Assembly: GCF_000698785.1 (NCBI RefSeq)
Contig: NZ_CP007536.1
Span: forward strand, 1,050,001-1,082,000
Direction: 5' to 3'
DNA length: 32,000 bases
Source of the DNA: Nitrososphaera viennensis EN76
Lineage (GTDB): Archaea; Thermoproteota; Nitrososphaeria; Nitrososphaerales; Nitrososphaeraceae
Positions 16,529-28,710 of this stretch are shown piece after piece; position 1 is the first letter of the stretch, and each line of letters opens with the position of its first letter. The translations under genes were made by a program, and so were the position numbers. The notes under the pieces were generated by a model. That model worked only from the letters and a program-made list of their open reading frames with translations, was not told where the DNA came from and did not search any database.

Positions 16529-17572
16529 CTAGTTGACGCCCGGGAGGTTGTTGTTTGCCGAGTTGTACGCCTTGGCGTCCGTGAAGAGCAGGAAGGTGAA
16601 GAACACCGGCTGCGTCGGGTTGTCCACGGACCACGGAGTTGACTGCGGCTTTGGCTCTGGCGCGTTTACGCCCCATTCTGCCAGCTTGGAGTAGTCAACT
16701 GGCGGCGGGTTTGTCAGCGACGGGTCGTCTGCAAGCGGCGTAAAGCTCTGCGCCTGCTCTGACGTGAGCGGGCCTATCCCGCCGGGAAGCTGTACCCCGC
16801 TTGGGACGTTCACTAGGAACAGGAGCACTACAAGCGGCGTGCCGTCGTTGTTCTGCATGTCAGAGTAGAACCCCTTCTCGTCGACTGCTTTTCCCACCAT
16901 CAGGTGCATGAATATGTTCTCTGCAACCAGCTTGCCGCCGTCAGTCTCGTCGTAGACGTTTGCGTGTCCGTACACCACCACCTTGTTCCAGAACAGGGGC
17001 ACGTCGGCCCTGTCTATCATAGAGTGGCCGTGCTGGTACTGGTCAAACGTCACGCCGTTTCCGGGGAGGAGAAAGTCAGGCGTCCTTGTAGGGAGGGGCG
17101 TCTGGGCAGGGTCGTCGTTGTTCCACTTTGTGTCGACCATCACGACCTTGTACCTGTGGCCCTTGACCTGGTGGTCGCCGTAGGTGATTGGCGCGGTGTA
17201 CGTGGCAACAAACTTGTTGTCGCCCGGCTCGCCGTTCTCTTTAAAGACGCCCTTGAAACTTGCATCTGTCTGGACGCCGCAGGTTATTGCGTCGCCGCAG
17301 GAGAAGGTGTCGTTGAAGAACGGAAAGATGCCGCCTGGGCCAAACACGTTCGTCTTGCCCGCGTTGGGCTCGTACAGCGCTGAACTGCCTGCAAAAGCCT
17401 TGACGTATGGCTGCTGCACCATGTCTGCCGCTTCCGCGTCCGTAGCTATCATCCTTGTGGATGATGAGCTGATGGCGATTACCGCCGGGACCATTGCAAC
17501 AAGCGAGGCTGCAAAGACCGTGGCGATAATGACATTAGCCTTGATTTTGCCGTTACCGTCGCGAAGATTCAT
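16529..17572 (-). CDS. secreted/membrane-anchored hypothetical protein
   Basis: 347 aa. N-terminal signal anchor KANVIIATVFAASLVAMVPAVIAISSS. ATG at 17572, with TATAAA (17594-17599) about 25 nt upstream. Confidence 0.65.
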   Translation of the reverse strand: MNLRDGNGKIKANVIIATVFAASLVAMVPAVIAISSSSTRMIATDAEAADMVQQPYVKAFAGSSALYEPNAGKTNVFGPGGIFPFFNDTFSCGDAITCGVQTDASFKGVFKENGEPGDNKFVATYTAPITYGDHQVKGHRYKVVMVDTKWNNDDPAQTPLPTRTPDFLLPGNGVTFDQYQHGHSMIDRADVPLFWNKVVVYGHANVYDETDGGKLVAENIFMHLMVGKAVDEKGFYSDMQNNDGTPLVVLLFLVNVPSGVQLPGGIGPLTSEQAQSFTPLADDPSLTNPPPVDYSKLAEWGVNAPEPKPQSTPWSVDNPTQPVFFTFLLFTDAKAYNSANNNLPGVN

Positions 17573-17575
17573 TGG

Positions 17576-17670
17576 GCGTGCTTTTGCTCCGGCTATAAAG
17601 GATTTTTCCCCAATTCACACCCAATTTACTCCCCAATTGCGGACAACTTTATAACCACCCAAAAGCACGC
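17576..17670. promoter_or_regulatory. symmetric divergent promoter/operator
   Basis: GCGTGCTTTTG at 17576-17586 and its exact reverse complement at 17660-17670. Each lies between a TATA-like box (17594-17599; 17648-17654) and the adjacent start codon. Three CCCAATT copies (17609, 17620, 17632) sit at 11-12 bp spacing in the centre. Confidence 0.55.
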
Positions 17671-17674
17671 AATT

Positions 17675-18100
17675 TTGTCGATGTTTCTAACGGCGGGCAT
17701 TTCGGGCATCATTGGCCTCATTACCATCACCTTTCGCCTGCCGTCGTCATTTCTTCTGCGCGCGTCGCCCGGCAGCGGCCCTGCGGGGCAGGGCGGCGGA
17801 TATATCGACCCGCGCTTCAAGCGCGTGCTGTGGTACCTGATAGCAAGCAGCAGGGGAGGCGTCAACCGCGCCAAGATAATCGACATGCTAAACGGCCGGC
17901 CGGCAAACGCAAACCAGATCGCGTCGGAACTGAAACTCGACTACAAGACCGTGCTCCACCACCTCAAGGTGCTCACGGAAAACGGCATGATAATCACCGA
18001 GAACAAAGAGATGTACGGCGCCACCTACTTTCTGACGCCGCTCATGGAAAAGAACTATGCGTCGTTCCAGGAGATACTGGCCAGGGTAAAGAAGGGGTGA
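17675..18100 (+). CDS. ArsR-type winged-helix regulator with hydrophobic N-terminal segment
   Basis: AKIIDMLNGRPANANQIASELKLDYKTVLHHLKVLTENGMI is a typical ArsR/wHTH core. The N-terminus FLTAGISGIIGLITITF looks like a TM helix. TTG at 17675, first ATG at 17681. Confidence 0.7.
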   Translation: MSMFLTAGISGIIGLITITFRLPSSFLLRASPGSGPAGQGGGYIDPRFKRVLWYLIASSRGGVNRAKIIDMLNGRPANANQIASELKLDYKTVLHHLKVLTENGMIITENKEMYGATYFLTPLMEKNYASFQEILARVKKG

Positions 18101-18187: not shown

Positions 18188-19846
18188 TCAGCTATGAAGC
18201 TCTGTCTCTGGGTGGAATGCCGCCCATTCAAACCAGAACCCTTCGTCAAATGGAAGGCGACTCAGTTGCTTGCCCTTCAGCGGCCCTTCGATTGCCCTCC
18301 CGTCAAAGTCCCACACGCTTGACGTCTGTGCGTCCATAATCTTGCCATCCTGGTACCGAAAGTCCAGAACAACCTTGCCATCGCCATCATTATCATCATC
18401 ATCCAGTAATGTTCTGTCGAACAACCTGGCACCAAATGAATAGACGGAGAACAGTGCTACCGGTTTTGCATCAATTTCGTCATTAATCACGTGCTTGTCT
18501 TCCACGTCTTGGAGTTTGTATGCCTTGAAGGTGCCGGAATTTTCAAGCCCAATCACAATCTCTTTTGAGCCGAGCCTGTCGTCGCGGTGGGAAACTGGAA
18601 ACAGGATGTCCGGGCTTGTGTAATAGTCGCCGTACGGGTCGGAGCCGTAAGGCCGGCCATAACCTGTATCCTGAGAGAGTACCTTTGATTGCAGGTGCAG
18701 CTCTTTCCAGTCTTTCCAGTATGCCAGGTCAAACGGAACCCGCTCTAGCTTCACCCCCGCATATTTGCCGGCAATTCCCTGCCCGAGCGCCTGGCTCCAG
18801 AGCGACTCGCTAGTTCTGTCATACATCACGAGGTTGCTGTTGTACAGCTTGCCCGAAGTCCCGAATTCCACTACAGCATCACCTACTGTGCGCTTGAACA
18901 CCTGGTTGGTAAAGCAGAGAGGGCAGTATGTGACTGCCACGGGCACTCCACCAACGTGGTCGTTCACAACCTCGTGCCAGACCATGATGCGCAGAGGGTA
19001 CGCCCTGATGTCGCCGTTGATTTCAAGCCCGAGCACAAGGTCAGAATCCTCAAGCTTTGCGTCTTTCACTGAAACAAACTTTGGGTTGTCTATCGACGGG
19101 ATCCCGTCTCGTGGAGGGCCTCCATTCACAATCTTGTCTGGCGGCACCATCAGGAAAGCTGCAGGCCGATCATCTGTCGCCGCGGCTGTTGCATCATTAC
19201 TTAGCAGCTGCTGCTGGTAGATAGCGGCGGCTGCTGATGCAATGACCACGACTGAGAGGACGATAGAACCAACCAATATCGCCAGGGGCTTAACAATGCC
19301 AGCCGGAGGTCTGGGCGCCATTTTCGATATGCGGCGATACAGCTTTACGCCATTGAGGGCTGCCAGGCCCAGCACCGACGCCGTGGCGACGTAGGAAAGC
19401 GGTTTTGAATAGTCAACGAGGAATGCCGAGACAGCAGTGCCAAAGACTGACGGAAGAAAAGATAGCAAAAGGAGCCAGCTTCCGCAACAGCCAAGCGGGA
19501 CAAGCGAAAAGAACGAGAAAAACGAGCCGACTGCGCTGCCGGAACCTGCACTGAACCGGCTGCTTCTTTTTTCAAGGTTGCATCCGAGGCTTCTCCCATA
19601 GCTGGCAAACAAGGTCTGCGCAGCTACCGCCATCGAGGTGCCGCCAATGACAACAGGGTTTGCCGAAAAAGCAGCCTGGATGGCTGAAAGGGCAGGGAGG
19701 CTTGGAGTAGTCAGCACGACTACAAGCAGGTACAGGGACATCGTTATGCCGCCTGCTAGCAGACTCTTTGCCAGCGCATTTCTTTCCATGTAGCCCAGGC
19801 GCCGCTGCTGCAAACTTGTCGCTAGCCATAATTCGCGCTTGTTCAT
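18188..19846 (-). CDS. fusion protein: Cys-containing polytopic membrane module + TM linker + DUF3179 domain
   Basis: The C-terminal about 330 aa carry DUF3179 signatures (PRDGIPSIDNPKF, VAVTYCPLCFT, TSGKLYNSNLVMYD). The N-terminal about 185 aa are paralogous to the 190-aa protein at 23960-24532: Cys loop, then GCCGSWLLLL in a TM helix, ending in RRISKM. Confidence 0.85.
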   Translation of the reverse strand: MNKRELWLATSLQQRRLGYMERNALAKSLLAGGITMSLYLLVVVLTTPSLPALSAIQAAFSANPVVIGGTSMAVAAQTLFASYGRSLGCNLEKRSSRFSAGSGSAVGSFFSFFSLVPLGCCGSWLLLLSFLPSVFGTAVSAFLVDYSKPLSYVATASVLGLAALNGVKLYRRISKMAPRPPAGIVKPLAILVGSIVLSVVVIASAAAAIYQQQLLSNDATAAATDDRPAAFLMVPPDKIVNGGPPRDGIPSIDNPKFVSVKDAKLEDSDLVLGLEINGDIRAYPLRIMVWHEVVNDHVGGVPVAVTYCPLCFTNQVFKRTVGDAVVEFGTSGKLYNSNLVMYDRTSESLWSQALGQGIAGKYAGVKLERVPFDLAYWKDWKELHLQSKVLSQDTGYGRPYGSDPYGDYYTSPDILFPVSHRDDRLGSKEIVIGLENSGTFKAYKLQDVEDKHVINDEIDAKPVALFSVYSFGARLFDRTLLDDDDNDGDGKVVLDFRYQDGKIMDAQTSSVWDFDGRAIEGPLKGKQLSRLPFDEGFWFEWAAFHPETELHS

Positions 19847-19880
19847 TATTTAATTCCGTACTTCAAGGGTTAAAGAAAAG

Positions 19881-20066
19881 CTAGATTGGTTGATTCAAGC
19901 TACCACTAGTTTTTCGGATCTCCGCTATTTCATGGAGCATCCTGTTGATCCTTCTCCTCTGCCTGATGACCTTGATCCCCTTCATCATGACCGGGCTTGC
20001 CGCCATTCCCAAAAGCATGCCCACGGTCATGTCAAGAGAGACAAACCCGAGCATCAACGGTTCCAT
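19881..20066 (-). CDS. possible small Met-rich membrane protein
   Basis: MEPLMLGFVSLDMTVGMLLGMAASPVMMKGIKVIRQRRRIN... It has one hydrophobic segment and a basic tail, and fits the gap between two same-strand genes. The TTG at 20105 would extend it to 74 aa. Competing plus-strand ORFs exist. Confidence 0.25.
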   Translation of the reverse strand: MEPLMLGFVSLDMTVGMLLGMAASPVMMKGIKVIRQRRRINRMLHEIAEIRKTSGSLNQPI

Positions 20067-20142
20067 GGCCCTTGTAGGCCGCAAAACAATAAAAGATTTT
20101 TTCAAGTCTTGCGACGACGACGGCGGCAGATTCTATCAGCTG

Positions 20143-20844
20143 CTAACCTGTAGTGGCGGGGGCGCTGCTGATGGCGCTGCTTGTGACCAGCAGCTTGCCA
20201 AGCGTGGTCAGCTTGGCAGATATCTTGCCCCTGTCGCCTTTTTCCACCTCAAGCAGGCCGAGGTCCGCAAGCCCCTTTGATTCACGCGAGTCCATCACGT
20301 GGTAGCTGAGCAGGGGCTTGCCATAGCCGGATACCTGCTCGAGCTGATCCAGGCTCTCGATAGAGCCGCCTGCGCTGTGTATGGCATTCAGTATCCTGAT
20401 TTTTGCTTCAGAGATTATTTCGCTGTAGCTGAGTTTCAGCACCGGCATGAGCAGCGGCTCGCCGGTGGCAGAATCCATCCCGAATGCCTTGATCCCGTTG
20501 ATAAAAGCCGCAGACAGCGCCGCGCACCCCATCAGCTTGTCCCCGCAGCTTACGTTCATGAGGACCTGCTTGAACTCTTTTTGGCGGATGCTGTTGAGGA
20601 TTTCACTTACCCTTTCCATCGTATTCCTGATGACGTTTTCCCGTGTGACCAGGCTTATCGTGACTGTCAGGCCAAGGACGGCCCGGAGCTTCCTTGCAAA
20701 CTCTTCTGCCTTCTGCCTGTCAGAGTTGTAGCACAGGAGCACCAGCTGGTGTACGGGGAAATTCCTGATGCCGGCGGCGATGCCTTCCTGACCTTCGCCT
20801 CCAAAGGTTGCTATCTGGAGCGTGGTCATTTGCTGCTGCGACAT
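20143..20844 (-). CDS. CARF-like (Csa3/HFX_2341-type Rossmann-like N-domain) + C-terminal wHTH putative regulator
   Basis: 233 aa. The N-terminal pattern LQIATFGGEGQEGIAAGIRNFPVHQLVLLCYNSD ... MNVSCGDKLMGCAALSAAF resembles Csa3/CARF-type domains. The C-terminus AKIRILNAIHSAGGSIESLDQLEQVSGYGKPLLSYHV...LGLLEVE is a wHTH. This is recall-level similarity only. Confidence 0.55.
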   Translation of the reverse strand: MSQQQMTTLQIATFGGEGQEGIAAGIRNFPVHQLVLLCYNSDRQKAEEFARKLRAVLGLTVTISLVTRENVIRNTMERVSEILNSIRQKEFKQVLMNVSCGDKLMGCAALSAAFINGIKAFGMDSATGEPLLMPVLKLSYSEIISEAKIRILNAIHSAGGSIESLDQLEQVSGYGKPLLSYHVMDSRESKGLADLGLLEVEKGDRGKISAKLTTLGKLLVTSSAISSAPATTG

Positions 20845-20952
20845 GCAAGGTAAACTGGATGAACGACAGTATTAAAAATGGCGTCAAACCGTTCAATTTT
20901 CTCTTTAATAGAAGAAAAGGAGTTACCTACTTACCATACTAAAAAAATATTA

Positions 20953-21345
20953 TTATTTGGAGCCGAGCGTCGCATAGCATGTTCCGCATTTGGATTTGTA
21001 TCTATATTCAAGGCCAAATCCGACTGCAAGCATAGCTATAAGCGCAGTCCAAGTAACCCATGCTGGCAGATTTACCACTCCTATCGTGTCTAAAAGATCC
21101 AGAATGCCAAGTCCCAAGAATCCCGGTCCGGTTATTTTGCAGTGGTATCTGCCGCATGAGCCGTAATTGACCAGACACAATGCACTTGCTGCAAACCAGC
21201 CCGCGACTAGCGCCCATCCTTCATACGGAGATGGCATCAAGTTATCTGCCAAAACCATGTATCCGATTACTGCTAGCCAACCCCACAGGGGAATCTCCCT
21301 ATGCCTAGCCACAGGTTCAACCGGTTGTCGATTGTTCTGCTCCAC
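20953..21345 (-). CDS. Cys-rich four-TM membrane protein, unknown family
   Basis: 130 aa with a GTG start. Four predicted TM helices. Cys in TM2, loop SCGRYHCKITGPG, and C-terminal KSKCGTCY. Preceded by the same 25-bp promoter box as merB. Confidence 0.6.
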   Translation of the reverse strand: MEQNNRQPVEPVARHREIPLWGWLAVIGYMVLADNLMPSPYEGWALVAGWFAASALCLVNYGSCGRYHCKITGPGFLGLGILDLLDTIGVVNLPAWVTWTALIAMLAVGFGLEYRYKSKCGTCYATLGSK

Positions 21346-21377
21346 AAGTCTGCTTTACAGAAGCGATACATTTTCCC

Positions 21378-21402
21378 TTTATACCCCACAGGTTGGGCAC
21401 AT
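21378..21402 (-). promoter_or_regulatory. conserved 25-bp promoter/operator box, copy A
   Basis: TTTATACCCCACAGGTTGGGCACAT matches 22862-22886 at 22/25 positions. Read on the minus strand it is ATGTGCCCAACCTGTGGGGTATAAA, with the TATA part about 36 nt upstream of the 130-aa gene start. Confidence 0.6.
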
Positions 21403-21444
21403 TTATTATTAGAAACAAGGCACTATTAGCAAGCGTATGACAGC

Positions 21445-22095
21445 ATGCGGCGCGTAACTCTGGAGTTCAACTATCAAGACGCATGGAAGCAAATCTTTGG
21501 TTACAATTACGGCAAGGTCGAGATCCTTGAGGCTCTCAGGTGCTTCAGGTGCGATACTCAGGGTCTAGCCCTTATCTGCAGGATAAGATTGAAGGATAAG
21601 AGTATGGATGCGAAGGATTTGGTAGGCAATGGGCTTCTTACAAATTTAGAGGTTCTTTACAGGGAAAAGGACGGGTCACTGGTTGTCTTCATCGAAGGAG
21701 AGACAATTGTTCCCCCGTCGCCAGGAAGTATCCATCGGCCCAGATTGCTAATGGCTCGCCCGCCAGAATTTTTGGATGTAAACAGAATGAAGGCAGAGTT
21801 GATAGGCAGGGAGATTGAAATAAAGAAGTTCCTTCAATATGCGAACAGGCTATCCAATACGTACAAGATCCTTGGGCTCACTTCTGTTAATACGAAACCA
21901 GAATCGCCCCTATCAAAGCTGACCCTTAAGCAAAGGCAGGCGCTTCTCACGGCTTATGCTCTGGGCTACTATGATGTTCCACGGAGGATTTCTTCGGAAC
22001 AGCTCTCTGAACATCTAAATGCTGACAAGTCTACTGTAGTTGAACACTTGAGAAAGGCTGAAAGAAAGCTCATTGCCAGCATCATTGCTGGCTAA
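21445..22095 (+). CDS. HTH_10 (Bat-type HTH) family transcriptional regulator
   Basis: C-terminal LTLKQRQALLTAYALGYYDVPRRISSEQLSEHLNADKSTVVEHLRKAERKLI is the classic HTH_10 motif. The N-terminal domain contains a CFRC pair. Confidence 0.75.
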   Translation: MRRVTLEFNYQDAWKQIFGYNYGKVEILEALRCFRCDTQGLALICRIRLKDKSMDAKDLVGNGLLTNLEVLYREKDGSLVVFIEGETIVPPSPGSIHRPRLLMARPPEFLDVNRMKAELIGREIEIKKFLQYANRLSNTYKILGLTSVNTKPESPLSKLTLKQRQALLTAYALGYYDVPRRISSEQLSEHLNADKSTVVEHLRKAERKLIASIIAG

Positions 22096-22152
22096 GAAAG
22101 GTTGAAAATAAAAGAAAATGGGAGGTGCAGGGTATCCTTTTTGGCGTCTAGC

Positions 22153-22830
22153 TCAGCACATCTTGCAGCCCGACATTATGTCCTGATACTTGTGGAGGTG
22201 TATTTCTTTGAGGGTTTTGTAAACATCGTTTGCCGAATAGAACGTCTGGTCAGGATGCTCCGCTATCCATTTGGACGCTGTTTCAGGTGAGCTGAAGAAG
22301 TTGACATTATTGCAGCCGCTTCCCCGGATGTTTTTAACATCTATGTTCTTTACCCATGATACAACGGCGCTCTTGGGATCAACTTTCTCTACTCTGTCAG
22401 GCGTTACACTGATGCGGATTTTCTTGCCGGTTACGGGGTCAGGGGATTCTATGTTGGCATTTTGTTTGAGCATGACCGGGAAAGCCAATGCGTCTGCTGC
22501 GCACCATGTATACAGCCTTCGACCGTCAACCTCGTAGACATGTGGAGTTGGAACCAAAGTCAGCCCAAGCCCTACTATGTTGCCTTCCTTGTCAAATTCT
22601 GCTCCAAACCCTCTAAGTGTAGAGGTCATACTGTCTGGAGATATTCCAAGGCGCATCGCTACTTCATCAGGAGGCACAGGGCAGCCATTTACCAAGAGCT
22701 GCCAGGTCTGACCGACGATACGTCGTCGCTCTGAACCCAGACTTTCATAGATACCTGTTAGAATCTTATCAAATGCTTGCTCTACGTTATTTGCTGTTTT
22801 CACTCTACTGTTTCTCATGGTTTTTGCCAT
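22153..22830 (-). CDS. merB: organomercurial (alkylmercury) lyase MerB
   Basis: FDKEGNIVGLGLTLVPTPHVYEVDGRRLYTWCAADALAFPVML aligns with the MerB core (catalytic Cys-x2-Asp, WCAxD). GCNNVNFFSSPETASKWIAEH matches the second catalytic Cys region (FCCHVHFFAS...W..KH). There is an extra C-terminal GCKMC. Confidence 0.9.
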   Translation of the reverse strand: MAKTMRNSRVKTANNVEQAFDKILTGIYESLGSERRRIVGQTWQLLVNGCPVPPDEVAMRLGISPDSMTSTLRGFGAEFDKEGNIVGLGLTLVPTPHVYEVDGRRLYTWCAADALAFPVMLKQNANIESPDPVTGKKIRISVTPDRVEKVDPKSAVVSWVKNIDVKNIRGSGCNNVNFFSSPETASKWIAEHPDQTFYSANDVYKTLKEIHLHKYQDIMSGCKMC

Positions 22831-22861
22831 GTCCTTAACTTAACATGCGTCTTGGATTAGC

Positions 22862-22886
22862 CTTATACCACACAGGTTGGGCTCAT
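22862..22886 (-). promoter_or_regulatory. conserved 25-bp promoter/operator box, copy B (merB promoter)
   Basis: CTTATACCACACAGGTTGGGCTCAT. On the minus strand it reads ATGAGCCCAACCTGTGTGGTATAAG, with the TATA part about 35 nt upstream of the merB ATG (22830). Confidence 0.6.
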
Positions 22887-22910
22887 CCAGTCCTCTACAA
22901 CTGTAGTAGC

Positions 22911-23378
22911 CTATCGTTCCATCACAAGCTCTGTCTTTCTAAATCCGCCCAGCTTGTAGATGGAGAATAGCACTATGGCTATTGATATTGCAGTAAAAAC
23001 AGGCGAGTACATCGTTAGGAACAGTGTCGGTCCTAATGGCAAGAGTACGCCTATGAATGAAAAACATGCTGGACAAACGCCAACCATGAAGCCAACAACT
23101 GAACCGGCGAAGCCTGTCCTTGCTGCCTCTGGCTTGCAGTTAAAGCACTTGTTCCTTGTGAATAGATAGAGCGAGATGAACACGCCAAACAGGATGGAGA
23201 ATGCCATGTATGGTATCGAGCTCCAAGGCTTCTGCTGTAGGTCCAAAAACCATATGTCAAATGCAAGCCAAGTGTTTATCAGCTGTATCAAAGGGAGAAG
23301 AAAGAAAATTCCTGTAGCTGATAGAGCCGCTATAGCAGGCTTGTATTTTACAGCAGAAAGAAGCCTTATGCTTACCAT
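22911..23378 (-). CDS. membrane protein with two CxxC motifs (loop CFNC, intramembrane CPAC)
   Basis: 155 aa, about 4 TM. RNKCFNCKPE, then GFMVGVCPACFSFIGVLLPLGP inside a TM helix. The C-terminus ...YKLGGFRKTELVMER resembles the end of the 190-aa paralog. The ATG is 9 nt after the thioredoxin gene stop. Confidence 0.7.
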   Translation of the reverse strand: MVSIRLLSAVKYKPAIAALSATGIFFLLPLIQLINTWLAFDIWFLDLQQKPWSSIPYMAFSILFGVFISLYLFTRNKCFNCKPEAARTGFAGSVVGFMVGVCPACFSFIGVLLPLGPTLFLTMYSPVFTAISIAIVLFSIYKLGGFRKTELVMER

Positions 23379-23387
23379 TTCCTACCA

Positions 23388-23957
23388 CTACGCAAGAAAC
23401 GGTTCGAGCACCTGCTTTGCTTTTGAATATTCAAGCGGGTTGACATCTACCCATTTTATTATGCCATTGCTGTCAAATACATATTTTGTATCAAGATATC
23501 GCACCTTGTATTCCTGTGGCATCTGTTCGCTTTCCGCAACATACCAATCGCTCCTGCCATACCTGTCTTTCCAGTCAATATATTGCTGATCTGTCTCTCT
23601 CGGGTCTACAAACACTATCAATACATTGAACGCATTTCCGCCTGTCTTATCATCAAGTCTTGCAAGGTTCTGAGCTCCTATCTGGCATGGAGTGCACCAT
23701 GTTGTTGTAAAGAAAATAAGCACTGGCTTGCCTGCAAATGTTTGCTTTGTTATGCTGCCCTTTTCAGGATCTCTGAGGCTGAAGCCAGGGGCAGAGTCGC
23801 CAACCTGCAATCCTTGAACATTTTCTTTTCCTGAAGCGGTGGTGAGGCCTGATCCGCTGGAGGCCTGTGATGAAAAGCTCGATGCTACAACTGCTATTAT
23901 CACTGCGGCTGCTACAGCTCCTCCTATGACTACATACTTCTTCTTATTGTCGGTCAT
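23388..23957 (-). CDS. membrane-anchored TlpA/ResA-like thioredoxin-fold thiol:disulfide oxidoreductase
   Basis: Start placed at ATG 23957 (MTDNKKKYVVIGGAVAAAVIIAVVASS, an N-in signal anchor), 2 nt after the upstream stop. Thioredoxin active site FTTTWCTPCQ. AhpC/TSA-like GDSAPGFSL entry. 189 aa. Confidence 0.85.
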   Translation of the reverse strand: MTDNKKKYVVIGGAVAAAVIIAVVASSFSSQASSGSGLTTASGKENVQGLQVGDSAPGFSLRDPEKGSITKQTFAGKPVLIFFTTTWCTPCQIGAQNLARLDDKTGGNAFNVLIVFVDPRETDQQYIDWKDRYGRSDWYVAESEQMPQEYKVRYLDTKYVFDSNGIIKWVDVNPLEYSKAKQVLEPFLA

Positions 23958-23959
23958 TC

Positions 23960-24532
23960 TCAGGATCTCTCCATTTTGGATATCTTTCTTGACATGAGAT
24001 AAGTTCCGGCAGCCAAAACTGCTACTGTCAGCGGAGCCATGTACTTGCTGTAAATGGATAGAGAAGAAAACGCAGTCGGACCTATTGCAAGGGCAAGCAA
24101 TCCTCCACCACAGCATGAAAAGCTTGTGAAGAAGGCAGGAACAAGGCCAAACAACCCTTTCGATTCTGGTCTTTTTCTCGTTCCACATGCTTTTGCAAGC
24201 CTTCTTGAATAGAACATGAGTGCAGTATTAATGCCAACCAGAATCGAGGATGCTGCAAGGAAGGCAAGGGCTCCATAAAAGATGAAGAAGAATACATTGT
24301 CAGTGGGAATGGCGGATATTCCAAGATAAGTCGCCCTGAAGACAGGAATGCCCGTGGCCGAAGAGAGATTGGGAACATATGATACTATCCCAACTGTTAC
24401 CATGTAGATTATCGCATATGCCAGACCTGATGCAATGGCTATTGTTCTATACTTTGAAGTTCTAATTACATGAAAAATAGGCGTAAGCAAAGAACCAGCA
24501 GTGTGGGGGCTTTGCATTTTTTTCCTCGTCAC
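23960..24532 (-). CDS. membrane protein with loop Cys and intramembrane vicinal CC
   Basis: 190 aa (GTG at 24532; alternative ATG at 24517 preceded by GAGGA). About 4-5 TM. LAKACGTRKRPESKG, then FFTSFSCCGGGLLALAIGP, with C-terminal SRKISKMERS. Paralogous to the N-terminus of the DUF3179 fusion and to the 155-aa protein. Confidence 0.7.
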   Translation of the reverse strand: MTRKKMQSPHTAGSLLTPIFHVIRTSKYRTIAIASGLAYAIIYMVTVGIVSYVPNLSSATGIPVFRATYLGISAIPTDNVFFFIFYGALAFLAASSILVGINTALMFYSRRLAKACGTRKRPESKGLFGLVPAFFTSFSCCGGGLLALAIGPTAFSSLSIYSKYMAPLTVAVLAAGTYLMSRKISKMERS

Positions 24533-24591: not shown

Positions 24592-24659
24592 GCCGAGGAT
24601 AGTTATGTCAATGCTATAAAAAAGAAAGCCCTTATACTATCTATCCTGTAGTTTAAGGC

Positions 24660-25055
24660 ATGGCCAAGCCTGGTAAAGCGATATGCCTCTGCCCGCTGGA
24701 AGGAGTGATAGACATAATCAGCAAGAAATGGGCTCTTTTGATAGTGAATGAAATAGGCAACCACGGGAGGATACGCTACAATGATTTGATGAAGGAGATA
24801 CAGGGAATAAGCCCAAAGACGCTTGCAGATACTCTCAAAGAGCTGGCAAAATATAACTTGATAACGAGAGAAGCTTTCAACGAGATTCCCCCAAGAGTTG
24901 ATTATCTTTTGACAAAGGATGGCGAGGAGCTCAGGCAGGCTATAATACCGATATTGCAATGGGCTCTGACAAAGAAAGGAACTGTAGTTGCTCATTGCTC
25001 TTGTTCTATGATTCCTAAGGGAAAAAGAATAGGAAAGGAAGATCTTTCTCTCTAA
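24660..25055 (+). CDS. HxlR-family winged-helix transcriptional regulator
   Basis: CPLEGVIDIISKKWALLIVNEIG...RYNDLMKEIQGISPKTLADTLKELAKYNLITREAFNEIPPRVDYLLTKDGEEL matches the HxlR signature. Extra Cys pairs: CLC at the N-terminus and CSC near the C-terminus. Confidence 0.85.
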   Translation: MAKPGKAICLCPLEGVIDIISKKWALLIVNEIGNHGRIRYNDLMKEIQGISPKTLADTLKELAKYNLITREAFNEIPPRVDYLLTKDGEELRQAIIPILQWALTKKGTVVAHCSCSMIPKGKRIGKEDLSL

Positions 25056-25498: not shown

Positions 25499-26929
25499 AT
25501 GATAATGAAAAATGGCAGGTATGACCTGATAATTATCGGTGGCGGGGCAGCTGCATTTAGCGCAGCCATCAAAGCCAACAGGCATGGCGTGAAAACTGCA
25601 ATGATTGAACGTGCAATGCTTGGCGGCACGTGCGTGAATGTAGGCTGCGTGCCTAGCAAGAACCTTTTAGGCGCAGGGGAAATATTGCACTCTGCCAAGC
25701 ACCCTTCCTATCCATCGGTGTTTTCATGCGATTCTGATTTTGATTTTGCCAAGACGATTGAAAGTAAGGATGCGCTTGTAAGGGGATTGCGCAAGCAAAA
25801 GTATTATGATGTGCTACAGTCACTTGAACATGTGGAGCTCGTACAGGCCGACGCTTCATTTGTCTCTCCAAAGAAAGTCAAAATTGTTGATGATGATGGC
25901 AGGCTATTCGAGGCCGACAAGTTCATCATAGCCACTGGCTCTTCGCCTTCTGTTCCGAGGTTCAAAGGAATAGAGAATATGCAATATCTGACGAACAATG
26001 GGGCATTGGCACTTAAGGAAAAGCCTTCTTCAATGATTGTCATAGGCGGCAGAGCTCTTGGTCTTGAATTTGCACAGATGTATGCTAGGTTTGGCGCCAA
26101 GGTGACTCTGCTGCAGAGAAGTGATAGGATTATTCCTGACCACGAGCCTGAAATATCACAAGGACTGCACCAGCATCTGACTGAAGAAGAAGGAATAGAA
26201 ATCATCACGGACGTGAATGTGCGGGAAGTATGGCAAAAGAATGGAAGCAAGTTTGTCCGTGCATCGGTAAAAAATAAGGAAGAGCGAGTGTTTGAAGCAG
26301 AGCAGTTGCTTATGGCAACTGGCAGAAGACCCAATACTGCTGACCTGCATCTGGAAAACGCTGGCGTAAAACTGAGAGACGATGGAGCGATAATTGTCAA
26401 CTCTGAAATGCGAACTTCGGCGTCTCACATATGGGCGGGCGGAGACGTTGTCGGAGAGCCAATGCTTGAAACTTTGGCAGCAAAAGCAGGCGCAACCGCT
26501 GCCGAGAATGCATTGACAGGCGGCCACAAAAAGATAGACTTGCTTTCTGTGCCGTCGGCGGTATTTACCTCCCCTCAGGTAGCATCCGTTGGGATGACTG
26601 AAGAACAAATGATGCAGAAATATGGCTACTGCTCTTGCCGTACTCTGCTCATGAAAGATGTTCCCAAGGCTCTGACGGTCAACGATACAAGAGGCCTGAT
26701 CAAGATGGCTGTCGATCCAAAGAAGAATAATCGCATAGTTGGCGTGCACATTCTTGCAAGCATAGCTGCTGACATGATTCACGAAGCAGTCGTGGCTGTA
26801 AAATACAGGCTGACTATAGATGATATCATAGACACGGTGCATGTGTTTCCGACGATGTCTGAAGCGATAAAGCTGGTTGCGACCGCATTCAAGCAGGATG
26901 TAAGCAAACTCTCATGTTGTGCAGAATAG
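25499..26929 (+). CDS. merA: mercuric reductase MerA (core enzyme, no NmerA domain)
   Basis: YDLIIIGGGAAAFSAA FAD fold. Redox-active GGTCVNVGCVPSK. C-terminal FKQDVSKLSCCAE is the diagnostic MerA vicinal Cys pair. GAGGG lies 6-10 nt upstream of the ATG. Confidence 0.93.
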   Translation: MIMKNGRYDLIIIGGGAAAFSAAIKANRHGVKTAMIERAMLGGTCVNVGCVPSKNLLGAGEILHSAKHPSYPSVFSCDSDFDFAKTIESKDALVRGLRKQKYYDVLQSLEHVELVQADASFVSPKKVKIVDDDGRLFEADKFIIATGSSPSVPRFKGIENMQYLTNNGALALKEKPSSMIVIGGRALGLEFAQMYARFGAKVTLLQRSDRIIPDHEPEISQGLHQHLTEEEGIEIITDVNVREVWQKNGSKFVRASVKNKEERVFEAEQLLMATGRRPNTADLHLENAGVKLRDDGAIIVNSEMRTSASHIWAGGDVVGEPMLETLAAKAGATAAENALTGGHKKIDLLSVPSAVFTSPQVASVGMTEEQMMQKYGYCSCRTLLMKDVPKALTVNDTRGLIKMAVDPKKNNRIVGVHILASIAADMIHEAVVAVKYRLTIDDIIDTVHVFPTMSEAIKLVATAFKQDVSKLSCCAE

Positions 26930-28235: not shown

Positions 28236-28347
28236 CTATGCTCTCTCGACGGTTTGTGCGTATAAAACGAGTATTTCCAACAGTTGGAGATTGACTTTAA
28301 CTGTTTGATTTATCAGATGAGGGCTAGAAAGAGCATCAAATTAACTT

Positions 28348-28367
28348 GAATTGGGACCGAATTGGGG
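28348..28367. promoter_or_regulatory. GAATTGGG x2 (reverse complement of the CCCAATT motif at 17.6 kb)
   Basis: GAATTGGG at 28348-28355 and GAATTGGGG at 28359-28367 with 11-bp spacing, in the divergent region between 28235(-) and 28408(+). Confidence 0.4.
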
Positions 28368-28407
28368 AAAAAGTAAATTAGGCAAGCCGAGAGCCGAAAA
28401 GCCGTAA

Positions 28408-28710
28408 ATGGTGGACTTTATGCTCGGCGCCGCAGGAGCCGCCCTTTTGAACATTGGGCTCCTTGGAGGCATTGTCGCGCTCTACATACAGAGCCTGAGA
28501 GTGATAAAGTCCTACTTTACCTGGGGCCTTGTCATAGTGGCGTCGCTTTTCATAGTCCAGAATATTGTAATCGTTATTTTCTGGTCGAACCTTTACCTGG
28601 CCGGCCCGGCGATAAAAGCCATAGTTGACGCAGCTGCGCCGTACCTGTTTGTGATAAACGCGGCCCAGTCAGGAGGGCTTGCGGTCCTCTTTTGGATAAC
28701 CAGAAGATGA
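28408..28710 (+). CDS. small three-TM membrane protein, unknown function
   Basis: 100 aa, ATG start, three clear hydrophobic helices, followed by an oligo-T tract. Confidence 0.55.
   Translation: MVDFMLGAAGAALLNIGLLGGIVALYIQSLRVIKSYFTWGLVIVASLFIVQNIVIVIFWSNLYLAGPAIKAIVDAAAPYLFVINAAQSGGLAVLFWITRR

Follow-up and report, generated by a model that had tools for sequence, protein, structure and literature searches.

In the bacterial MerR/merOP system of Tn21 and Tn501, a regulator with three key cysteines is encoded divergently from its targets and acts at a dyad operator within the core promoter. Among archaeal regulators, Halobacterium Bat has sensor domains of the GAF/PAS type and works from an upstream activating sequence, while TrmB, SurR and TrmBL1 use a palindromic site at or next to the B recognition element (BRE) and TATA box, the position of which decides between repression and activation. 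Here we describe a promoter element that invites comparison with all of these. It lies in a 32,000-nucleotide stretch of the genome of Nitrososphaera viennensis EN76 (NZ_CP007536.1, positions 1,050,001 to 1,082,000; hereafter the window, with positions counted from its first letter) and consists of a 14-bp imperfect palindrome that directly abuts the TATA box of merB, which encodes an organomercurial lyase, and that of m130, which encodes a cysteine-rich membrane protein of 130 aa. The gene of an HTH_10 regulator, the candidate binder, lies between the two copies.

Ammonia-oxidising archaea are major nitrifiers in soil, and almost nothing is known of how they regulate their genes. Nitrososphaera MerA and MerB already figure in published surveys (PMC8261052), and published reviews of mer regulation discuss only MerR, ArsR-type and MerD regulators (PMC3466566). 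The 'MerR' of Sulfolobus solfataricus is ArsR-type and represses merA in the absence of Hg (PMC3466566); in our literature search it was the only case of archaeal mer regulation studied experimentally. The same search returned no description of the N. viennensis regulator or of the motif, and no published operator for the subfamily.

The locus resembles MerR/merOP in having a three-cysteine regulator (a candidate sensor), a dyad operator within the core promoter, a divergent regulator gene and a mercury-resistance target. It differs in protein family, as the regulator belongs to HTH_10 and has no MerR-family match in Pfam or NCBIfam (E <= 0.01), and in promoter architecture, with archaeal TATA/BRE in place of -35/-10 and an operator upstream of TATA rather than in the spacer. 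Moreover, merA is not under the box, and the DNA untwisting by which MerR works is not implied here. Like Sulfolobus MerR, the protein is an archaeal mer regulator, here a candidate, but it is tied to merB rather than merA and is not of ArsR type: HTH_5 scores 16.6 bits against a 22-bit cut-off and covers the HTH core only. It shares with Bat the C-terminal DNA-binding domain PF04967, whereas for its N-terminal domain of ~150 aa no match was found in Pfam, in the PDB or by fold. With TrmB, SurR and TrmBL1 it has in common a palindromic site next to BRE/TATA; the protein families and motifs are different, and here the junction with TATA is an invariant zero-gap one. The kind of system would be familiar, a locally encoded regulator that responds to a ligand and has a dyad operator in a divergent promoter; mercury genes had not before been connected with this protein family or with the sensor domain.

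A palindrome abutting the m130 and merB TATA boxes

An initial annotation of this DNA had drawn attention to two 25-mers on one strand, at 21378-21402 and 22862-22886, that are identical at 22 of 25 positions, and both the coordinates and the identity proved correct. Their common 20-mer, GCCCAACCTGTGNGGTATAA, occurs exactly twice in the window when up to three mismatches are allowed, and none of 100 dinucleotide shuffles gave a match. The similarity ends at the box edges, so the boxes are not part of a longer repeat. No other 25-mer pair in the window reaches 22/25, about ten pairs reach 21/25, and by our own calculation the analytic expectation for a pair at 22/25 or better is ~0.06. The identity by itself is therefore only mildly unusual; conservation in orthologous loci is what makes the pair non-random.

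The box had been read as a conserved 12-mer abutting the BRE/TATA position. The position holds, but the core is a 14-bp imperfect palindrome with the consensus CCCnAC-N2-GTnGGG, directly abutting TATAA(A/G). We refer to the copy between the divergent m130 and HTH_10 genes as O1 (site 1) and to that upstream of merB as O2 (site 2). That reading had overlooked the dyad symmetry, which is as expected for a site bound by a dimeric HTH protein, as well as a second TATA element, at O1, that faces the regulator gene. The half-site distal to the m130/merB TATA is well conserved (G-n-GCCC(A/C)AC), whereas the TATA-proximal half-site is looser (GTnnGG) and weaker at merB sites. The 'ATG' proposed as the leading part of the box did not survive comparison: it is not kept at merB sites, where only G-n-GCCC is conserved.

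The TATA part of the box had been placed 35-36 nt upstream of the two start codons. This is approximately right, although the first T of each TATA, when measured, lies 37-38 nt upstream. The GTG start of m130 is supported by its orthologues, nearly all of which have an in-frame ATG 30-33 nt past TATAAA. From TATA box to start codon there are 31-32 nt at these promoters, compared with 20-25 nt at apparently leaderless genes of the window, which suggests a 5' leader of ~8-10 nt. Conserved blocks sit where initiation would be expected, AAGTTA at merB and TGTAAAG at m130; the AAGTTA block is possibly an initiator or the transcription start region, as its position fits a start ~20-25 nt after TATA.

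On the other side of O1 is the regulator-facing element TTTATTATTAG; the block ATTATTAG here is conserved in most orthologues, at a distance of 32-48 nt from the regulator ATG. We infer that this element is a TATA box. O1 would then lie between two back-to-back TATA elements, and one site probably serves both divergent promoters, which would mean autoregulation.

Two extra CCACAGG copies, at 21283-21289 and 21309-21315, had also been pointed out. Both exist, but they are coding and are not conserved as DNA, and each has one half-site only, which rules them out as auxiliary sites. The first spells the Pro-Leu-Trp codons of a PLWG motif and the second falls in variable N-terminal codons; at these positions orthologues read CCATAGG, CCAGAAGG, CCATAAGG and others. 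The heptamer occurs ten times in the window against an expectation of 3.9.

Conservation and specificity across loci

Orthologous and related loci were drawn from four sources: contigs with the exact sequence of the regulator, a metagenome scan, a genome scan, and contigs encoding distant homologues of the regulator. N. evergladensis and a third genome carry the element at the same positions. Site 1 was recovered in 22 distinct sequences as ACATTTTTCC-TTTATA-CCnnAC-N2-GTGGGG-CAnAT followed by an A/T-rich stretch, and the TTTATA of the m130 promoter is essentially invariant among them. Site 2 is present in ten of ten merB promoters of other Nitrososphaerales, counting loci with a complete upstream region. 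It reads GAG-CCCnAC-CT-GTnnGG-TATAAr-ACTAAT, with AAGTTA following ~10 nt before the ATG, and the spacing from TATA to ATG is 31 nt in nine of the ten, locus L023 being off by 2 nt. The upstream flanks of site 2 are wholly unconserved, and in both alignments (22 site-1 and 10 site-2 sequences) the columns of high information are limited to the box and a few blocks next to it. The spacing to the start codons is likewise constant in the 10 merB and more than 20 m130 orthologues, always with the box on the upstream (BRE) side.

The divergent m130/HTH_10 pair occurs in at least 17 loci, and merB follows the regulator gene in a subset only. The conserved unit is m130 plus the HTH_10 gene, with merB a putative regulon member in a subset of lineages only. 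Some Nitrososphaerales contigs (L115, 11355; L007, 2224) have two paralogous Cys-triad HTH_10 genes, each with its own operator copy; in L115 the second paralogue is divergent from a DUF1428 gene and not from m130.

If the motif were a widespread promoter consensus, a possibility raised when the box was first described, it should recur upstream of unrelated genes. It does not: a scan for the palindrome alone (at most one mismatch in the 10 specified bases), run over the window and eight orthologous loci (~130 kb), found only site 1 and site 2, with no match in the merA and HxlR promoters. At other promoters of the window, A-rich sequence takes the place of the motif ahead of a TTTATA-type box. 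The box does not belong to any known RNA element, as an Rfam scan of 20800-23500 gave no match.

At a larger scale, we searched 596 Gb of genome sequence with the 17-base pattern GCCCNACCTGTNNGGTATAA, which does not capture sites centred on ACATGT. There were 26 matches, 3 archaeal and 23 bacterial; N. viennensis and N. evergladensis are not among them, although their own sites match the pattern exactly. All three archaeal matches (two Nitrososphaera metagenome-assembled genomes and one from Bathyarchaeota) lie beside a gene for an HTH_10 homologue, as against none of the 23 bacterial ones. A viral scan with a looser pattern gave 48 matches, none linked to a homologue of HTH_10, m130 or merB, and we judged these to be chance or unrelated coding sequence. 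We also set aside a three-mismatch match to the box in the window, TATCACAAACAGGTACGGC at 28638-28656 on the minus strand. It lies inside the coding sequence of a DUF8036 gene, and a match of this type inside the same gene is found in L001/L002 (L002, 9174) and N. evergladensis, which probably reflects coding conservation.

The HTH_10 regulator as candidate binder and its proposed action

The regulator matches HTH_10 (PF04967) over residues 159-211 with 67.6 bits against a cut-off of 23.1, and its gene is the only regulator gene that always adjoins the box. The 216-aa sequence is 100% identical to an N. viennensis database entry. It had been named the obvious candidate binder from its position alone, and this proposal gains support from the constant adjacency together with the way the operator tracks the recognition helix. 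Regulators of the N. viennensis type have the recognition helix ADKSTVVEHLRKAE. Seven distant homologues (L038, L103 and L117-L121), only ~27% identical overall, have the helix MDKGTVGEHLRRAEK, and in all seven the helix type DK(S/G)TV(V/G)EH is paired with CCCnAC..GTnGGG. In each of these loci the promoter region of the adjacent gene has TTATA-CCCCAC-N2-GTGGGG (-TTGGGG in L120). That gene encodes an MFS, TauE or MMPL protein or is an unknown gene, and the palindrome is perfect (CCCCAC-AG-GTGGGG) in six of the seven: L038, L103, L117-L119 and L121. Homologues with the helix L(A/S)xSTLDxHLRKAE, by comparison, carry another 14-bp palindrome, GCGnA..TnCGC, upstream of their own genes in nine of nine cases. 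Operator sequence thus covaries with the recognition helix of the regulator in two classes (7/7 and 9/9 loci). From these patterns, the adjacent Cys-triad HTH_10 regulator is very probably the protein that binds the box.

The same comparison bears on whether the box needs a dedicated regulator at all. Its TATA part is generic and a 22/25 match within one window is only slightly out of the ordinary, so that the pair could in principle be a shared core-promoter sequence, a variant of BRE/TATA, or a chance similarity. We regard this as highly improbable, because the core has dyad symmetry and occurs in no other promoter examined, is retained at more than 30 orthologous sites with diverging flanks, and changes in step with the helix of the regulator encoded next to it.

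Other DNA-binding proteins are encoded nearby. The genes for an HxlR protein and for an HFX_2341_N/Csa3-like protein are both at most 4 kb from the boxes in N. viennensis, and either product could be imagined to bind them. We consider this very unlikely: in N. evergladensis there is no HxlR gene within 6 kb, many box-bearing loci lack HxlR, the HFX_2341_N gene is missing from L003, L113 and L116, and distant box-bearing loci contain only the HTH_10 homologue. On co-occurrence grounds HxlR was ruled out as the binder. Its promoter has a different conserved element, ATAACTATC, the reverse complement of which, GATAGTTAT, is at 24598-24606 in the window. This element is conserved upstream of merA-adjacent HxlR genes in L003, L113 and L116, and the HxlR/merA unit therefore seems to have an operator of its own, apart from the box.

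How might an HTH_10 protein act at this site? The reading that we favour with moderate confidence is of a composite promoter-operator module bound by an HTH_10 dimer, which would repress until a thiophilic ligand binds. The putative operator would begin just upstream of TATA in the m130/merB direction, where TFB normally contacts the BRE, and the unliganded dimer, by occupying this position, would block assembly of TFB and TBP. Binding of the ligand, such as Hg(II) or an organomercurial, to the Cys triad would release or remodel the regulator, and in this state m130, merB and the regulator gene would be switched on. O1 would control m130 and, probably, the regulator's own gene, whereas O2 would control merB. 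For repression as the sign of regulation, our confidence is only a little above even.

Several observations pull in the other direction. The junction between operator and TATA has zero gap in all class I sites and in the seven distant homologues with the MDKGTVGEH helix (~27% identity), and spacing as strict as this is seen more typically with stereospecific activation than with mere occlusion. The box is G/C-rich and presumably makes a poor BRE; together with the zero-gap junction, this would suit an activator just as well. The three promoters lack the A-rich upstream sequence of other promoters in the window. Archaeal factors bound just upstream of BRE/TATA often activate, as do Ptr2, TFB-RF1, and SurR or TrmBL1 at upstream sites. 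With the same operator and the same binder, the HTH_10 protein could thus be an activator, or a dual switch in the manner of MerR, that replaces a weak BRE and recruits TFB/TBP once ligand-bound. We think this less likely than repression, though well worth keeping in view, as the site overlaps the BRE itself, an arrangement that is usually repressive in characterised archaeal systems, and as local regulators encoded divergently from exporter genes are mostly repressors.

The layout at O1 also allows a different assignment, in which each TATA may serve the opposite gene, with the operator between TATA and start site. TTTATA, the plus-strand reading of the TATA hexamer, does resemble the generic orientation at other window promoters; the merB and L103 sites, which have a single TATA, favour the upstream-of-TATA reading. 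To these points must be added that the AlphaFold2 model of the regulator is poor (pLDDT 62.8), with nothing found by Foldseek against the PDB at E <= 0.001, and that our literature search found no transcription start site, expression or binding data for the locus.

Signal, gene content and wider context

The signal would be thiophilic and, most plausibly, Hg(II) or organomercurials, because of the cysteine triads, the recurrence of merB as a target and the surrounding thiol/metal genes. Regulator residues C33, C36 and C45 (CxxC-x8-C) are invariant in 120 homologues of at least 70% identity. Among the 237 clusters of the wider family (E <= 1e-10), the CxxC is confined to the closest, merB/m130-linked clusters, and C45 alone is common. 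Profile searches with the regulator gave no Pfam match for the N-terminal domain, in which the triad lies, and no meaningful PDB sequence match. The m130 product has an invariant triad too, C57, C64 and C69 (C-x6-C-x4-C); its family of 161 homologues has no Pfam match and is apparently restricted to Nitrososphaerales-type sequences. Two facts of gene content leave the case for Hg circumstantial: many lineages keep the m130/HTH_10 pair without merB, and merA is without the box, apparently in a separate HxlR unit.

The predicted MerB scores 187 bits in NCBIfam, slightly below the 200-bit cut-off, and in an alignment with E. coli MerB (3f2g) the catalytic residues Cys96, Asp99 and Cys159 are conserved; a bona fide merA lies nearby in the same genome. 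Coordinates of these and the other features are collected in Table 1.

Table 1. Positions of the genes and promoter elements discussed, numbered within the window
Feature	Position	Strand	Remarks
HFX_2341_N/Csa3-like protein gene	20143-20844		
m130, 130-aa membrane protein (primary target gene, predicted)	20953-21345	-	GTG start
m130 TATA box, TATAAA	21378-21383	-	Abuts O1; 32 nt then GTG at 21345
O1, candidate operator, CCCCAC-AG-GTTGGG	21384-21397	no strand	In the intergenic region of the divergent m130/HTH_10 pair; reads CCnnAC-N2-GTGGGG in 22 distinct orthologues
TATA-like element TTTATTATTAG facing the HTH_10 gene	21402-21412	+	4 bp from O1; 32 nt before ATG at 21445
HTH_10 regulator gene, 216 aa (candidate binder)	21445-22095	+	Pfam HTH_10
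merB, organomercurial lyase (second target gene, predicted)	22153-22830	-	Pfam MerB, 113.5 bits
AAGTTA block	22836-22841	-	6-11 nt upstream of merB ATG; conserved
Block 3' of merB TATA, GGCTAATCC	22853-22861	-	ACTAAT in orthologues; near-invariant columns
merB TATA box, TATAAG	22862-22867	-	Abuts O2; 31 nt then ATG at 22830
O2, candidate operator, CCACAC-AG-GTTGGG	22868-22881	no strand	merB direction: GAG-CCCAAC-CT-GTGTGG
Genes for Cys-containing membrane proteins and a thioredoxin-like protein	22911-24532	-	
HxlR regulator gene	24660-25055	+	
merA	25499-26929	+	TIGR02053, 580.7 bits against a cut-off of 454

The stretch 18188-24532, together with merA and merB, is a cluster of Cys-motif membrane proteins and redox proteins that resembles a thiol/metal island. 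Besides m130, its members include a DUF3179 protein with GCCGSW in an N-terminal transmembrane region, two proteins of 155 and 190 aa with the motifs CFNC/CPAC and SCCGGG, respectively, and a thioredoxin/AhpC-like protein.

A bolder extension, which we put forward only tentatively, is that the Cys-triad HTH_10 proteins of Nitrososphaerales form a third, hitherto unrecognised class of Hg- or organomercury-sensing transcription factor beside the MerR and ArsR types, one that occupies the BRE position directly next to TATA. If so, m130 would encode a membrane protein with a new role in handling Hg, and the HTH_10 subfamily at large would be a general switch, with an operator abutting TATA, for archaeal transporter genes. 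Even short of this, the locus offers a concrete regulator-operator pair that can be put to the test, its motif defined and its target promoters numbering two or three, along with a candidate thiol/Hg sensor domain that has no known fold. The module recurs in Bathyarchaeota and in other Nitrososphaerales beside MFS, TauE and MMPL transporter genes, and an operator in place of the BRE may be a widespread archaeal design. Practical uses could include regulon prediction and Hg-responsive reporters for organisms that are hard to manipulate genetically.

A different motif, AATTGGG-N5/6-AATTGGGGAAAAA with a TATA box after it, is common to two other promoter regions of the window, 17576-17674 and 28340-28407. 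The first copy lies in a divergent promoter between a 347-aa gene (16529-17572, minus strand) and an open reading frame at 17675-18100, which corresponds to an ArsR/HTH_5 protein in N. evergladensis. The second is upstream of the DUF8036 gene (28408-28710). This motif is a candidate operator of another small regulon.

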